In this document: piece by piece, positions 5,160 through 29,436 of the stretch
Layout: every line of letters starts with the position of its first letter
Numbering within the stretch: the stretch's first letter is position 1
Notes under the pieces: model-generated
Databases searched by the model: none
What the model saw: the letters and a program-made list of their open reading frames with translations, nothing else
What the model was told of the DNA's origin: nothing
NCBI GenBank assembly: GCA_964624815.1
Contig: CAZUZH010000002.1
Location: 10,049 to 55,308 of the forward strand
Reading direction: 5' to 3'
DNA: 45,260 nt
Source of the DNA: an uncultured Candidatus Saccharibacteria bacterium
Lineage (GTDB): Bacteria; Patescibacteriota; Minisyncoccia; Minisyncoccales; CAZUZH01
Position numbers and translations under genes: made by a program

Positions 5160-5861
5160 ATGTCCTCAAAAAATCCACAATTAATAAACGACGAATTCTA
5201 TCATATCATAAAAAGAGGAATTGAAAAAAGAGACATTTTTTTAGACGATGAAGATCGTTTCCGTTTTGTAAATAGTTTACTAGTTTTTAATGATAAAAAG
5301 CCCGCGCCTTGGCACATGCGTGCTTTTTGGTCTCAACGAGGTCCGACCTCGTTGCAAGACTATGTGCAGGAAGATCCTTTTGTTGAAATTCATGCCTTTT
5401 CTTTGATGAGAAATCACTTTCATATTTTAGTTCGTCAATTAAGAGATAATGGAATAAGTAATTTTATTAAAAAACTTGGTGGTTATTCTTATTATTTTAA
5501 TAAAAAACATAAAAGAATCGGACCATTATTCCAAGGAAAATTTAAGGCGGTTTTGGTGAAAACTGATCAGCAATTAAGACATAATTTTGTATATGTTCAT
5601 ACTAATCCACTTGAGATAATAGAATTTAACTGGAAAGAACAGGGGATTAAAAACCCCCAAAAAGCAGTTAAATTTTTAGAAAATGAATATAAATGGTCGA
5701 GCTATCCTGATTATTTGGGAAAAGAAAATTTTCCAAACGTTACAAAGAGAGATTTTTTCCTTAAAGTTTTTGGAGATAAAATTGGTTGCAAAAGAGAAGT
5801 AAATTCTTGGATTAAATATAAAGAAGAAATAGCTAAAATAAAAGATATTATGTTAGAATAA
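5160..5861 (+). mobile_element. REP-associated tyrosine transposase-like (IS200/IS605 TnpA-type HUH/Y1) gene
   Basis: 233-aa ORF with HUH motif (NHFHILV) and a downstream catalytic-Tyr-like motif (FVYVHTNPLE). It is flanked on both sides by identical REP doublets. Confidence 0.8.
5334..5354. repeat. REP-like palindrome inside the RAYT-like coding sequence
   Basis: caacgaggtccgacctcgttg read in frame as QRGPTSL. Confidence 0.85.
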
Positions 5862-24879: not shown

Positions 24880-24880
24880 T

Positions 24881-24901
24881 TGCCGGGTCGTCTAATGGTA
24901 G
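24881..24901 (+). pseudogene. tRNA 5' fragment (acceptor plus D-arm start), 18/21 identical to the tRNA-Gln 5' end
   Basis: tgccgggtcgtctaatggtag versus tgccgggtggtgcaatggtag at 25309. No anticodon or T arm follows. Confidence 0.6.
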
Positions 24902-25302
24902 AAAAGATATTCGAAAAACAACCTTATTCAAAAATAAGAAATGATTCGAACTGTGTTAAAATAAGTATTTATCAAAAGAACATAAGCAAAAGGTTGGGTA
25001 TTCCAACAGGAGATAGGAAAGATATCGTTGTAAAAATACCTAAGTGGATTCGGAGCAACAAAAATTATCTTAAAAGATATCTTAGAGGATTGTATGAGGC
25101 GGAGGGTTGTTTTTGTGTTCATAAGCCAACCTATACCCATAAATTTTTATTTAGTAATAGAAATAAATCACTCCTTGATAATGTTTATAATGGATTAAAG
25201 ACCTTAGGGTTTCATCCTCATAGAAGCAAGCATCAAATTCAAATTTCGAAGAAAGAAGAGGTTTATAAAGCAAAATCTGTACTACAGTTTAGAGAATATT
25301 AG
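24895..25302 (+). CDS. LAGLIDADG homing endonuclease, apparently N-terminally truncated
   Basis: Only one LAGLIDADG-type motif (YLRGLYEAEGCF), preceded by the tail of what looks like a first domain. It is wedged between a tRNA fragment and intact tRNA-Gln. Confidence 0.65.
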   Translation: MVEKIFEKQPYSKIRNDSNCVKISIYQKNISKRLGIPTGDRKDIVVKIPKWIRSNKNYLKRYLRGLYEAEGCFCVHKPTYTHKFLFSNRNKSLLDNVYNGLKTLGFHPHRSKHQIQISKKEEVYKAKSVLQFREY

Positions 25303-25308
25303 TCATTT

Positions 25309-25381
25309 TGCCGGGTGGTGCAATGGTAGTTCACACCACGCTCTGGACGTGGAAATCTAGGTTCGAATCCTAGCCCGGCAG
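25309..25381 (+). tRNA. tRNA-Gln (CUG)
   Basis: Acceptor TGCCGGG/CCCGGCA with U1-A72, which is typical of bacterial tRNA-Gln. Anticodon stem CCACG/CGTGG with loop CTCTGGA, T arm CTAGG-TTCGAAT-CCTAG. The D stem is weak. Confidence 0.85.
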
Positions 25382-25480
25382 CAGTCTAGTGCTCGGTATC
25401 GAGAGACCGAGCCACCTAGAAAATCGCCAAAAATGGCGATTTCTGATAAAATAAAAGAAGATTATTAATCTAAAATAATT

Positions 25481-26500
25481 ATGCAAAATAAAGCTTTTTC
25501 TACAATCGGGATTGTAATTATTCTTATCATCATTATCGGTGGAGGATACTTTGGTTGGCATTATTTTGGGTCATCAAAAGAGGCAATAAAAAATTTAACA
25601 CCAGAACAAGAAGAAGCGCTACAAAAAAATATAGAACAGGCCGGAATAAGAGAACGTGACGCTAAACGAGCTGGCGACATAGCAATGATTCAAACTGCCC
25701 TGCAATTATATTCAGATGATCATCAGGATTACTACCCCGTAGTCATTTATGGTGAGATGGCAAATTTATTCTTGGGATATTTAGGAAATAAAGATCTTCT
25801 CGATCCTTCCACAAATGAACCCTATTTTTACTACAGTTGTCCTCCTCAGGGGAGAGATTATCACTTAGGCGCTAAATTGGAGGATAAAAATAGTTCCTAT
25901 CTTGTACAAGATGCTGATGCCTCTAAATGCGGGCCTGCAGATTTTTCTGGCGAAGATCCAGTTTATGATGTATCAACATTACAAGCCACGCCCACAGCGG
26001 AAGGGCCGGGAGAGGTGATTGGAGATGAAACTGCTGGCTGGAAAACCTATAGGAATGAGGAGTATGGATACGAGGTAAAATATCCAGAAGATTGGATAAA
26101 TTTTGGAGAGCTATTAGGTGGATTTAATATAACCTCTCCAATCATAGACGGAAGAGCAGATAATAGAATTCAAGTTATACCCAACAAAAGAGAAGGCCCT
26201 GAATCAAATCGGGAATATATAGATAACATGATTGAGGGGAATACTATACCTGGTTACAATGAATTAAATAGGAAAAAAGAGATTACCATCAATGGGATAA
26301 AAGGCTATGAAATTATTTGGAATATGTTGGATTCTGAAACAAAACAGCTAGAGGAAGGATCATTATATATTTGGCTCGAAGCACCAGATACTAATGAAGC
26401 TCGATTTATCGTATTACGGTTTGATGGGAAAGGTTCGCAATATCCAGTAAGATTTCAAACTTTCAACCAAATGCTTTCTACTTTTAAGTTTTTGGAGTAA
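25481..26500 (+). CDS. pilin-like (type II secretion/type IV pilin fold) secreted protein with unknown C-terminal domain
   Basis: N-terminal hydrophobic helix, then RDAKRAGDIAMIQTALQLYSDDHQDYYP, which resembles GspG/pilin-like domains. Confidence 0.55.
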   Translation: MQNKAFSTIGIVIILIIIIGGGYFGWHYFGSSKEAIKNLTPEQEEALQKNIEQAGIRERDAKRAGDIAMIQTALQLYSDDHQDYYPVVIYGEMANLFLGYLGNKDLLDPSTNEPYFYYSCPPQGRDYHLGAKLEDKNSSYLVQDADASKCGPADFSGEDPVYDVSTLQATPTAEGPGEVIGDETAGWKTYRNEEYGYEVKYPEDWINFGELLGGFNITSPIIDGRADNRIQVIPNKREGPESNREYIDNMIEGNTIPGYNELNRKKEITINGIKGYEIIWNMLDSETKQLEEGSLYIWLEAPDTNEARFIVLRFDGKGSQYPVRFQTFNQMLSTFKFLE

Positions 26501-26825
26501 AACACCCCGACCGAGACTCTCCTTCATTAAGATTTCGGAAGGGCGCAGCGCGTCGGTGAGACATCCCGAAAAGCCCTGAATTATCCCTTAAAATCTCGGT
26601 TCAAGACCGAGGATGCCAGCACGAGTCAGCGCAGTATCGAGGCCGACCGAGAGGCCTATTTTGAAGCTATTTTTATGACGGGTCCAGGACGCTCTAAACC
26701 CACACCCCTCTAGGACATCGAACTTTTAAGAATAAAACGATTTCATTAGAATCCAGAGAATATACAAAAAATACGAGATGATTATACCTCGCGTTTTTTT
26801 CTAATAGAATTTTAAATTTTCAAGC

Positions 26826-26853
26826 TTGACTTTTTTTGACAGTTTACTATAAT
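26826..26853 (+). promoter_or_regulatory. sigma70-type promoter TTGACT-16-TATAAT
   Basis: Consensus-like hexamers about 170 nt upstream of the GC-rich ORF. Confidence 0.5.
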
Positions 26854-26908
26854 AATGGTGTTGTAAATAGTTCTTTTTAAATGTGGCAATATGACTCATG
26901 ATAATACT

Positions 26909-26963
26909 ATGAGATGAGCATTTTGGACGTCAGTTAAGCTGGTTTCTGAAATGCTCATCTCAT
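26909..26963 (+). promoter_or_regulatory. 15-bp perfect leader hairpin with 25-nt loop
   Basis: atgagatgagcattt (26909-26923) pairs with aaatgctcatctcat (26949-26963), between the promoter and the SD GGAGGTGA. Confidence 0.5.
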
Positions 26964-27024
26964 GAAGATGTAAGCCGTTAGCCCGAGCGATTCGGGTAAA
27001 AAAACTATATGGAGGTGATAGACG

Positions 27025-27891
27025 ATGACGACACAATCGATCACGTCAGGACAGACAAAGCAGTTTAAGAGGTTTGTCGAGGACGCCGCTGACAAGGCAC
27101 TCGCCGAAGTCGGTCTCGACAAGAATGGGCTTCAGAAGCTCATCGAGAATGGTGACGAGTTCCAAGCTCGCATCATCGCTGGCATCAGGGAGCTCTCCGT
27201 GAGTAACCAGTTCGCCGACGAGGAAGTGGAATCCAGCTACGGATACCTGTCGGGCTACAAGCCCAAAGGCATCACCGAGCAGACCAACATCCTGCGTCAG
27301 CTTTTCCCTGGCATCAGCTATGCCGATGAGAAGCTCGTCGAGCAACCGCTTCCCGCCAATGCCGAAGGATGGTTCGCCATCCCGAAGTGGCAGTCGGTCG
27401 CCAAGACCTACGAGGAAGCAGTGAAGAAGGTGCTGGAGCTGATTAAGCAACAGCGCAAGGGCAAATTCTACAACTACCGTGAAGGTAAGATCGGAGCGAG
27501 ATATCTCCGACAGCACGAGCGTACGGTGAAGAGGCTCGAAGCGCTGGCTGAACAGCAGAAGGGTCACGACATTCTGGTCGTGGCAGCTCAGTTCGGTCTC
27601 CGTCATCGGGGTCGCAGCGATCGTCGATCTCGTGAAGTCTTCACGGTCAACGAGTTCGGACTCGGCACATTCGAAATCGGGTGCATGATACTGACGCATC
27701 CCGAGCGACTCCAGCATTATGACGATCTCTGGATCGACTGTGCTGGCGACGAGTACGCACCTGGTGCTGGTGGTGGTTTCTCGGGCGTTCCCTGCTTCGG
27801 GTTCTTCGACGGTAGGGTCGGGTTCGGCGCGGGCTGGGTTGGCGGCCCGCGCGCCCGCTATGGTTCGGTGTCTGGTTTCCTTCCGCAGTAA
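27025..27891 (+). CDS. hypothetical protein, GC-rich foreign-looking gene
   Basis: 288-aa ORF with a strong SD and codons ending mostly in G/C, unlike all its neighbours. Glycine-rich C-terminus. I recognise no domain. Confidence 0.75.
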   Translation: MTTQSITSGQTKQFKRFVEDAADKALAEVGLDKNGLQKLIENGDEFQARIIAGIRELSVSNQFADEEVESSYGYLSGYKPKGITEQTNILRQLFPGISYADEKLVEQPLPANAEGWFAIPKWQSVAKTYEEAVKKVLELIKQQRKGKFYNYREGKIGARYLRQHERTVKRLEALAEQQKGHDILVVAAQFGLRHRGRSDRRSREVFTVNEFGLGTFEIGCMILTHPERLQHYDDLWIDCAGDEYAPGAGGGFSGVPCFGFFDGRVGFGAGWVGGPRARYGSVSGFLPQ

Positions 27892-27957
27892 GTAGAGCCT
27901 TGAAAACTTGGATGCTTGAGCCTTTTGAGACTTTGAATTCTTGCATCCGCCACATCA

Positions 27958-27995
27958 GGGGTTATTCACATCAGTGAGTAACCCCTTCTTTTTTT
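27958..27995 (+). terminator. intrinsic terminator
   Basis: ggggttattcac / gtgagtaacccc followed by TTCTTTTTTT. Confidence 0.7.
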
Positions 27996-28391
27996 CTGAA
28001 AACGTATTTTAAATAAAATCTTCATTGCGGATTATTTACGCCTATTATCAGACAAAGCAAAGAATTGAGTTTATAGAGTTATATTTTAAGAGTGACAAAG
28101 AAAGAGAGGATATTGGAAGAATTAAAAATTATTTAAAAACTATAGATGCATAATGCAGACTCTTTAATAAAAAATCTTTTAATCCTGTTAAATAATTTTG
28201 CATTCAGCAAAATTGCCGCAAATCGGCATTTAGCGAGGTAGGGTAGGCAATGAATTAGAAAGTACTTTTAGGGAAGGACACTTTGCTGCGATAGACATTT
28301 TACTGGACTTGACAAGCCATTTTGTGCTATAAAGAAAATAGAGCAGTTCTTTAGGGGGATCTTTTACAACAAAAAAGAGGAGGCGAGACCA

Positions 28392-28946
28392 ATGAAAAGA
28401 GAAGTGAAAAAGCTTTTGGAACCGTTTATCAAGTGGAAGCCAAAACTTCAACCAGCTTTGCCCGACTTGACCGAACGGGTCATTGAAGCCATTTTTTGGC
28501 AGGAGGTGTCAGATGTAATTGCAGTTTCGGATAACCTGATTCTTTTTTGGCCATCCATGCGAGTTCCTTTTTGGCAAAGTTTAACATCAAACCTTGCCAA
28601 TAGTCTTAACGGGAAACTGGACCAGGGAGAATTAGAAAGTTTGCAGGATGACTTGGAGAAAAAATTAGGCTTTGGCCTGAAAGGAGGACTGCGTATTGAG
28701 AATAGTCTTTGGCGCGCTCTAAAGAAGCATTGGTACGGTTTGGACACCATAGAACGTCAGACAAAGCTGAGGGGAGAGATGCAGCAAAATTTGAAACAGA
28801 CAGTGTTCCTGGCAGCTGGGTTCTGCTTGGCAGGGGACAAGGATAAGAACTTTCAACCATTGTTTGACCTGTGGCTGAAAGGTAATCTTCCTCTTTGGTT
28901 TGACAGCCAAGGAAAGTTGGTTATTCTCTGTGGCAGACCCTTCTGA
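28392..28946 (+). CDS. hypothetical Trp-rich protein
   Basis: 184-aa ORF preceded by AGAGGAGG. GC is intermediate between the island gene and the backbone. No recognised domain. Confidence 0.7.
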   Translation: MKREVKKLLEPFIKWKPKLQPALPDLTERVIEAIFWQEVSDVIAVSDNLILFWPSMRVPFWQSLTSNLANSLNGKLDQGELESLQDDLEKKLGFGLKGGLRIENSLWRALKKHWYGLDTIERQTKLRGEMQQNLKQTVFLAAGFCLAGDKDKNFQPLFDLWLKGNLPLWFDSQGKLVILCGRPF

Positions 28947-29040
28947 TACCCGTCGTTTTCCAAAGGGAAAGGGCGGGTTTTTATTTGGATAGATATGGAC
29001 TTGCCATGTAGAGAAAATTTGAGAAGCGCTTTTAGCGTAA

Positions 29041-29353
29041 AGAGTGCGGGATTCGAACCAAAGTCAGCTTTAGAAGCCAAAAAATGAGATGATTTCAAGG
29101 CGCGACGACGAAATTGTAGTATAATATACTACATTGAGGAGGAGCAACACAGAAATCAGCCATTTTTTGGCTTCCCTTCGGGCGGGCGAATTCGGGTAAT
29201 CTTCTTCGTTGCTCGCCCCGTTAGAGATTTAAGAACTAAATCCCTAACGGGGCTCGTCGCTTATGTATCCTATGGATACACTACGCTCCTCGCGCCTCGA
29301 ATCTTGCCCGAATTCGCTCCGCTAAATTGACTCTGGTTCGAATCCCGCACTCT
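29041..29353. repeat. nested inverted-repeat element with tRNA T-arm-like termini
   Basis: Outer arms are 29041-29066 / 29328-29353 (25/26). The second layer is 29073-29086 / 29161-29174 (14/14). Inner arms are 29182-29196 / 29307-29322. The core is a CCCCGTTAGA hairpin at 29215-29253. Confidence 0.8.
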
Positions 29354-29436
29354 AAGTGAAAACTTTAAAAAGTTTTCAACTCAAATTTCTTCTATAGGGC
29401 TTGATTTATTATTCTAATTTATTGTAGAATAAGATA

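Follow-up and report, generated by a model that had tools for sequence, protein, structure and literature searches.

Diversity-generating retroelements (DGRs) are common in the Patescibacteria, or Candidate Phyla Radiation (CPR). One DGR clade ('DGR clade 2') is restricted to that group, and no domain is recognised in its targets (Roux et al. 2021, PMC8144416); CPR DGRs had also been reported earlier, as cited by the same authors. Degenerate DGRs are also on record, as are DGR targets that are remote or orphaned (Wu et al. 2018, PMC5758913). Here we consider a GC-rich open reading frame (ORF) of 288 aa, at 27025-27891 in a 45,260-nt stretch of contig CAZUZH010000002.1 from an uncultured Candidatus Saccharibacteria bacterium (assembly GCA_964624815.1); this whole stretch is referred to below as the window. 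Our analysis indicates that the ORF is very probably a DGR target gene of the Patescibacteria type, stand-alone and probably frozen in this genome, with an allele that has been exchanged and a GC-richness that is family-wide.

The evidence that carries this assignment lies at the C-terminus of the protein. In the family alignment, some 245 N-terminal residues are strongly conserved and the C-terminal 43 aa are hypervariable, with variable positions interspersed in an invariant scaffold (F, P, F, G, V, F, W and GS.SGF), a pattern that marks a DGR variable region (VR). In locus L001, which encodes a protein 86% identical to that of the window, the last 130 nt of the gene recur 0.4 kb downstream as a repeat with 17 mismatches, all 17 of them at adenines of the repeat. 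In L007, adenines account for 20 of the 22 mismatches between the template repeat (TR) and the VR. Across our comparison set of 80 species-representative loci, approximately 36 have a TR with essentially adenine-only mismatches (e.g. 14/14, 19/19 and 26/26). When the window VR is set against the L001 TR, the two differ at 26 of 31 adenine sites and at 14 of 100 other sites (p = 1e-12), the latter figure being equal to the gene-wide level of divergence; the hypervariable columns of the family alignment coincide with these adenine sites. Variation at TR adenines, by which a DGR target is recognised, is therefore seen here by proxy, with a TR taken from another genome.

Twenty of the 26 adenine-site changes between the relative's TR and the window VR are A-to-G. 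This argues that the 'Gly-rich tail', which an earlier reading of the DNA made from the sequence alone (the sequence-only reading) had listed as a notable segment, is in fact a mutagenised VR, and would represent the A-to-G read-out of D, N and K codons from a TR encoding PDADGDFSNAPYFNFNDGK...; in full, the nearest relative's TR reads PDADGDFSNAPYFNFNDGKVKFDTNWFDNANDNYGSVSGFLPK when translated. Lacking A, the 3' part of the VR (~27858-27885) forms a constant end that is intact in the window, and the segment TATGGYTCGGTGTCTGG.TT.C..CCG, identical between TR and VR in L001, is retained in the window VR as well. This GC-rich constant end appears to resemble the initiation of mutagenic homing (IMH) site. 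The cognate TR would be expected to read as the window VR with A at the TR-adenine sites, ending in ...TTCCTTCCGAAG.

Homologous loci supply the rest of the machinery. Reverse transcriptase (RT) and Avd homologues lie within 1-2 kb of the target in 39 of the 80 species loci. In L007 an RVT_1 RT gene and a bAvd gene adjoin the TR/VR pair, and the Avd passes the NCBIfam model NF033474 (DivGenRetAVD) with a score of 83.7 against a cutoff of 80. The best full-length match of the RT among solved structures is a 328-aa RT (entries 8ub7-8ube, E 3e-46), which from its length we take to be the Bordetella DGR bRT, and the RTs of the homologous loci carry IGNLTSQ, a motif typical of DGR RTs. The order of the module in this DGR clade (L020, L030 and 37 other loci) is TR, avd and RT, with avd on the opposite strand between the other two, and the whole module follows the target in some loci and in others precedes it in inverted orientation.

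In complete members of the family, RT and Avd would copy the TR RNA with misincorporation opposite adenines, and the resulting cDNA would then overwrite the last ~130 nt of the target gene, that is, the VR. Twenty codons with 30 adenines among them allow ~4e17 peptides, so that overwriting would recode around 20 codons, with this repertoire, on a conserved C-terminal beta scaffold, which probably forms a ligand-binding surface. We infer this mechanism from established DGR biology and from the adenine-specific TR/VR pattern of the homologous loci.

The window copy consists of the target only, with its own promoter, a family-specific leader, a Shine-Dalgarno sequence (SD) and a terminator (Table 1). 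No TR-like repeat was detected in its 45 kb, at up to 35% mismatch and also by blastn; tblastn found neither RT nor Avd in the window, and no RT even at E = 50 in the flanks. L008 and L010, which match the window at 99.9% identity, extend the contig through its edge proteins by 4.4 kb and 9.6 kb (~59 kb together with the window); gene calling gave no RT in these extensions, which were not scanned for a TR. A search of metagenomes with the VR 3' end, aimed at a TR specific to the lineage, gave 0 hits and also missed the contig of the window itself, and is therefore uninformative. A stand-alone state is common in the family, with 24 of 50 well-flanked species loci lacking a nearby RT and keeping an intact gene. 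Furthermore, the closest relative, L012 (on the same contig as L002), retains at the same locus a TR and a 53-aa truncated avd remnant with no RT, which points to a decaying DGR; homology between L012 and the window ends at ~28026, short of the TR. The identical protein, VR included, is encoded on contigs from other samples, which argues for a stand-alone and probably frozen variant. Most likely, the window gene is a variant that no longer diversifies, is still expressed and is under purifying selection.

Table 1. Coordinates of the probable DGR target gene, its signals and associated features in the window.
Feature	Position	Strand	Basis or remark
tRNA-Gln	25309-25382		downstream of the LAGLIDADG ORF
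Block common to window and L012 (promoter, leader, gene, terminator)	26704-28026	+	blastn
Sigma-70-type promoter, TTGACT-16-TATAAT	26826-26853	+	consensus match 11/12
Conserved structured 5' leader RNA	26863-27033	+	covariance model R1: 101 bits, E 1e-19
GTTCTTT..AAA box in leader	26870-26881	+	specific to target-gene leaders
P1, long hairpin of leader	~26909-26963	+	92% paired, 20/25 compensatory pairs
P3 hairpin, CCCGAGCGATTCGGG, just before SD	~26990-27004	+	81% paired
SD, GGAGGTGA	27011-27018	+	upstream of the 288-aa ORF
Probable DGR target (variable protein) gene, 288 aa, GC-rich	27025-27891	+	homologues, purifying selection, AlphaFold2 model
Antisense ORF, 223 codons	27046-27717	-	codon-opposed frame to the target gene
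VR (probable), last 43 codons, PGAGGGFSGVPCFGFFDGRVGFGAGWVGGPRARYGSVSGFLPQ	27760-27888	+	hypervariable columns on conserved scaffold
Intrinsic terminator hairpin, 13-bp stem and T run	27957-27986	+	kept in L012, L015, L007/L020

The target is a real protein under purifying selection. Non-synonymous and synonymous differences per site (pN and pS) are 0.23 and 0.65 in its non-VR part (26 loci), and 0.30 and 0.87 in the RT of the homologous loci. A 90%-clustered database holds 1780 homologues, the best 120 of which are 59-88% identical and nearly all ~288 aa long, and at 50% identity the protein matches 2002 clusters. All named sources among the 120 closest matches, and likewise nearly all of the 80 species loci, are Patescibacteria-type metagenome-assembled genomes (MAGs), a result that speaks against the GC-rich host thought conceivable earlier as the source. 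As the sequence-only reading had reported, the protein has no recognisable domain: searches of Pfam and NCBIfam gave none, and there was no sequence match in the PDB. Neither a signal peptide nor a transmembrane segment was found.

A first AlphaFold2 (AF2) model, built from 39 close sequences, was poor (predicted local distance difference test, pLDDT, 64) and its Foldseek matches were meaningless; a second, built from a diverse alignment of 107 sequences, reached pLDDT 96. In this model an N-terminal helical bundle and an alpha/beta core are followed by C-terminal beta hairpins that bear the VR. Foldseek returned nothing significant for it in the PDB or BFVD. Weak local hits at E 3-5 to TvpA (2y3c), BDCA2, rhodocetin and other C-type lectins, and to CarF/PvdO, which we take to be FGE-like, are suggestive only. 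The earlier proposal of an undescribed accessory system is borne out as far as the gene appears to be accessory and probably of a ligand- or host-interaction type; it is not of an orphan kind, in that it is very probably a DGR target gene. DGR targets would hereby gain a large family of Patescibacteria proteins that has been unannotated, with ~2000 clusters at 50% identity, no domain in Pfam and a confidently predicted fold for which the PDB has no significant counterpart.

The composition of the gene is the feature that first set it apart. The genome is of Patescibacteria type with ~0.36 GC, and the window carries ftsE/ftsX, a LAGLIDADG ORF, tRNA-Gln, ftsZ and RNase P RNA. GC is 0.554 in the 1-kb interval 27001-28000 and ~0.35 elsewhere, the rise to 0.55 being confined to ~27.0-28.0 kb. 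The ORF itself has a GC of 0.576, with 0.63, 0.41 and 0.69 at the first, second and third codon positions (GC1, GC2 and GC3), against a GC3 of 0.29-0.48 in neighbouring genes. The sequence-only reading had described a GC-rich gene amid AT-rich ones, with a consensus promoter, a structured leader of ~165 nt, an SD, a clean terminator and an antisense strand open for 223 codons, and all of these are indeed present. What did not hold was the meaning given to composition as a sign of recent foreign origin, since the trait is family-wide: target GC lies over 0.05 above that of the flanks at 73 of the 75 loci, with medians of 0.584 for the target, 0.409 for the flanks, 0.408 for the RT and 0.387 for Avd. 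RT GC follows host GC (slope 0.86, intercept 0.03), and target GC follows it weakly (slope 0.39, intercept 0.415). At conserved residues, codon identity is 0.447 against 0.436 expected from family usage (50% aa divergence). Synonymous sites have accordingly reached saturation with no constraint at particular sites, and target GC3 stays high despite this saturation. Because it survives saturated synonymous divergence while the RT tracks host GC, GC-richness appears to be a trait of the whole target family, with no footprint of a GC-rich donor or host, and it would be actively maintained across the family irrespective of host GC.

Several causes of this bias were considered, and most were rejected. 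Dependence on a nearby RT is ruled out, the GC excess being alike with and without one (0.166 vs 0.182, p = 0.42). Site-specific nucleotide constraint, or a conserved mRNA structure in the coding region, does not agree with the fall of codon identity to the family-usage expectation, and high-expression codon usage is ruled out by the ribosomal protein genes of the same genome, whose GC3 is 0.36-0.39. Adenine avoidance is weak as the sole cause of the high GC3, T being depleted too and C the most enriched base. A bias that keeps the antisense frame open is likewise rejected, as 42 of 66 homologues have stops in that frame and CTA and TCA occur no less often than the other codons ending in A. 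As candidate causes there remain selection that acts on the coding sequence or the mRNA, and GC-biased gene conversion tied to recurrent recombination at this gene.

Comparison with two syntenic relatives enabled us to reconstruct a possible history of the locus. The gene order ftsE-ftsX-tRNA-target...ftsZ is the same in L012 as in the window, and L084 shares this synteny, so the target locus is old in the clade. Homologues of the same composition between ftsX and ftsZ in L012 and L084 are what the sequence-only reading had named as a finding that would speak against its own interpretation. The flanks of the window and L012 are far apart: eight flanking orthologues share 49-67% protein identity and 66-70% nucleotide identity, with saturated pS of 0.69-0.81. 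The non-VR part of the target is 90% identical, with a pS of 0.255, and the leader and terminator share 77-80% of their nucleotides; blastn against L001/L012 gives 85.8% identity over 26822-28026 and 93% over 26704-26747. L084 serves as an internal control: its flanks are equally distant, it has no RT or TR, and its target is 59% identical to that of the window (pS 0.62). The contrast between a pS of 0.255 in the target and 0.69-0.81 in the flanks argues that the allele is much younger than the genome backbone.

It seems that the 26704-28026 allele was exchanged between the window and L012 lineages, or came to them from a third donor, long after the genomes had diverged, the likeliest route being replacement of the resident allele at the ancestral locus. 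By the criteria used for genomic islands, composition is atypical, the gene is present in L012 and L084, the allele is incongruent in pS and there is no integrase, a pattern that fits allele exchange at an ancestral locus and not a new island. The donor pool would be other Patescibacteria and not a GC-rich organism. The earlier inference of recent acquisition is accordingly right in that the allele is younger than its surroundings, and fails in that the donors point to other Patescibacteria and the locus to an ancestral one. Nor does the gene form a two-gene cassette with the next ORF, as had been supposed, since 28392-28946 has no homologue in the 91 related loci.

A GC-rich non-coding segment at 26617-26747 is contiguous in the window and split in L012 (12486-12595 and 9756-9799), where imperfect direct repeats of ~23-30 nt flank a 2.8-kb block that holds the promoter, target, TR, avd remnant and a hydrolase gene; the split may have been left by a rearrangement or by a mobile cassette. 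In the window, the GC-rich non-coding interval 26500-26730, part of which is found elsewhere in L012, is not significantly structured (fold z = -0.42) and shows no protein similarity and no RT or avd remnant.

These observations must be weighed against other explanations, the most serious of which is that the gene is still an active target, served in trans by a DGR (RT, Avd and cognate TR) elsewhere in the genome. Remote targets are known for DGRs (PMC5758913), the 24 stand-alone genes are intact with an equal GC excess, and the constant 3' end of the window VR has been preserved. However, the TR lies within ~0.5 kb of the target wherever it has been found in the family, the syntenic relative L012 shows decay on the spot (truncated avd, no RT), the 45-kb window holds no TR and the VR is identical in contigs of different samples; we therefore regard action in trans as rather unlikely. 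Other points weigh against our preferred reading of a frozen, exchanged DGR target. The parts that define a DGR, namely TR, RT and Avd, are all missing from the window, and the search spans ~59 kb of the genome, so that an RT and TR elsewhere in it may act in trans. Membership of the gene among DGR targets rests on homology and on the TR of another genome, and for the C-type-lectin fold that is usual for VRs there were only weak local Foldseek hits (E ~3).

The remaining alternatives all concern the GC island itself. Recent gain of a foreign gene from a host or some other GC-rich donor would agree with the sharpness of the island, with an allele younger than the backbone and with the tRNA-Gln and homing-endonuclease ORF upstream. 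Its strong form is refuted and what is left of it is highly improbable, as the closest named matches and nearly all 80 species loci are Patescibacteria-type MAGs, the same GC excess recurs in 73 of 75 loci of AT-rich genomes, codon identity has decayed to saturation with GC3 still high, the adjacent RT and Avd are host-like in GC, and the locus is syntenic in L012 and L084. The notion that the GC-rich stretch encodes an antisense protein or a long structured RNA, to which the sense ORF is incidental, starts from the existence of the antisense ORF and from an mRNA that folds somewhat better than its shuffles (z = -2.5, 20 shuffles). It too is refuted, with hardly any probability left to it: stop-producing codons break the antisense frame in 42 of 66 homologues, the sense frame has a pN well under its pS and keeps its length in ~2000 clusters, there is no site-specific synonymous constraint and the sense protein is modelled at pLDDT 96. 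The antisense ORF, which the sequence-only reading had weighed as a hallmark of GC-rich DNA, is a by-product of codon usage (avoidance of TTA, CTA and TCA) and no gene. An assembly chimera, finally, has the abrupt change in composition in its favour and nothing more. An independent contig from another sample (L092) matches the window over 25558-28108 with 1 mismatch in 2551 nt and the same arrangement of gene and flanks recurs in relatives; the island is therefore genuine, and the chance of a chimera is negligible.

Returning to the gene as a probable DGR target, its upstream region is distinctive as well. The ~170 nt upstream of targets align across lineages, the promoter region is also kept in L004, L024 and L012, and a GTTCTTTNAAA box near the transcription start is specific to target-gene leaders. 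RNAalifold predicts a 25-bp hairpin in the leader with compensatory changes in 20 pairs, and the covariation score of P1 and P3 together is 0.555, against 0.08-0.15 in slid controls. P2, a short alternative pairing (88% paired), draws on the same 3' arm as P1; three-way covariation of alignment columns 71, 140 and 155 implies that P1 and P2 are mutually exclusive. Frequent G-U pairs and much weaker scores on the minus strand favour a structure at the RNA level. A scan of 1.29 Mb with the covariance model placed the motif at 45 loci, directly upstream of the target start in every case (e.g. L071 2617-2757 and L015 1334-1481), and nowhere else. Rfam 15 gave no match to the window leader at the gathering threshold, with only a spurious miRNA-hairpin match at E <= 1, and no leader match upstream of the targets in 22 related loci. 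The most economical reading is that the leader is a putative cis-regulatory switch, and its occurrence only before target genes suggests a riboregulator of variable-protein expression.

The same leader motif also precedes members of a second GC-rich family (L022 11696-12451 and L073 5789-6577). This family of ~250 aa (the same ORFs, that of L073 on the minus strand, and L074 6184-6825) has a GC3 of 0.68-0.78 in genomes of 0.36-0.40 GC and a shared S.(K/R)RARE...N.FG motif, and its C-terminus is variable and rich in Gly. No TR was found for it within 10 kb; it is probably a distant paralogous family of DGR targets. In 6 of 22 scanned loci a LOOT RNA (RF03000, an sRNA motif) lies 150-450 nt from the target (L020 11051-11170, L029 11041-11169, L031 5639-5762, L037 9558-9687, L039 1622-1751 and, as two inverted copies, L021 3618-3738 and 4295-4412); it is absent from the window. 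LOOT and the TR/RT module always occupy opposite strands and flank the target, and a link between LOOT and Patescibacteria DGRs, unrecognised so far, is possible.

Taken together, these features lead us to a broader proposal, which we hold tentatively and with slightly less than even confidence. In it, Patescibacteria DGR targets form a superfamily with two undescribed dedicated features, a covarying leader and a GC content ~17 points above that of host and RT that survives RT loss, and in addition undergo allele replacement, which would imply a constraint or bias specific to targets. Candidates for such a bias are GC-biased conversion driven by recombination, and a property of the mRNA or DNA needed for expression or retrohoming. 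In the DGR literature accessible to us, we found no account of GC enrichment confined to the target, of a covarying leader or of allele exchange between lineages. An apparently orphan 'foreign' gene can now be interpreted as a DGR variable-protein gene that has lost, or is separated from, its mutagenesis machinery. Moreover, the leader RNA, the host-independent GC and the allele exchange are relevant to the regulation and sharing of hypervariable binding proteins in ultra-small bacteria that depend on hosts.

The window holds further elements of interest. A LAGLIDADG-type homing-endonuclease ORF (24880-25302) begins directly behind the ftsX stop codon, with 6 nt between its end and the tRNA-Gln, and is not found in the syntenic relative L012. 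Just upstream of ftsZ, a nested palindrome of 325 nt (29036-29360; RNA fold -155 kcal/mol, z = -13) is closed by a stem of ~20-26 bp, with sequence resembling a tRNA T-arm and acceptor in both orientations; it gave no tRNA call, no Rfam match and no homologue in the 91 related loci. The palindrome CAACGAGGTCSGACCTCGTTG occurs in six copies (1826, 4471, 5021, 5864, 16568 and 41070), several of them clustered around an ORF at 5160-5861 with a weak match to Y1 transposases (IS200/IS605-type), and the palindromes and this ORF together appear to resemble a system of repetitive extragenic palindromes and their associated transposase (REP/RAYT).

Compared with known systems, the locus stands closest to the Patescibacteria (CPR) DGRs. 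As in these, homologous loci carry RT, Avd and TR, and their C-terminal VR differs from the TR at adenines only; the window target, like CPR DGR targets, is without a recognisable domain, signal peptide or transmembrane segment, whereas the window copy differs in having no RT within ~59 kb and no TR or Avd in the window. The DGR of Bordetella phage BPP-1 (mtd-avd-TR-brt) has an apparently related RT, an Avd member, A-to-N differences between TR and VR and a constant GC-rich VR 3' end in common with the family. Unlike it, the Patescibacteria element is cellular and not phage-borne, with avd on the opposite strand between TR and RT, and the target is small and probably cytoplasmic, no tail fibre, and has no significant fold match in the PDB. 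TvpA of Treponema denticola and other variable proteins of the C-type-lectin fold likewise carry the VR at the extreme C-terminus on a beta-hairpin scaffold, although there is no significant structural or sequence similarity to TvpA (E ~3). With the remote and orphan targets described previously (PMC5758913), the window shares a VR gene without an adjacent RT and a relative with a partial cassette; it differs from them in that the stand-alone state is frequent in the family (24/50) and in that the gene has stayed intact, under purifying selection.

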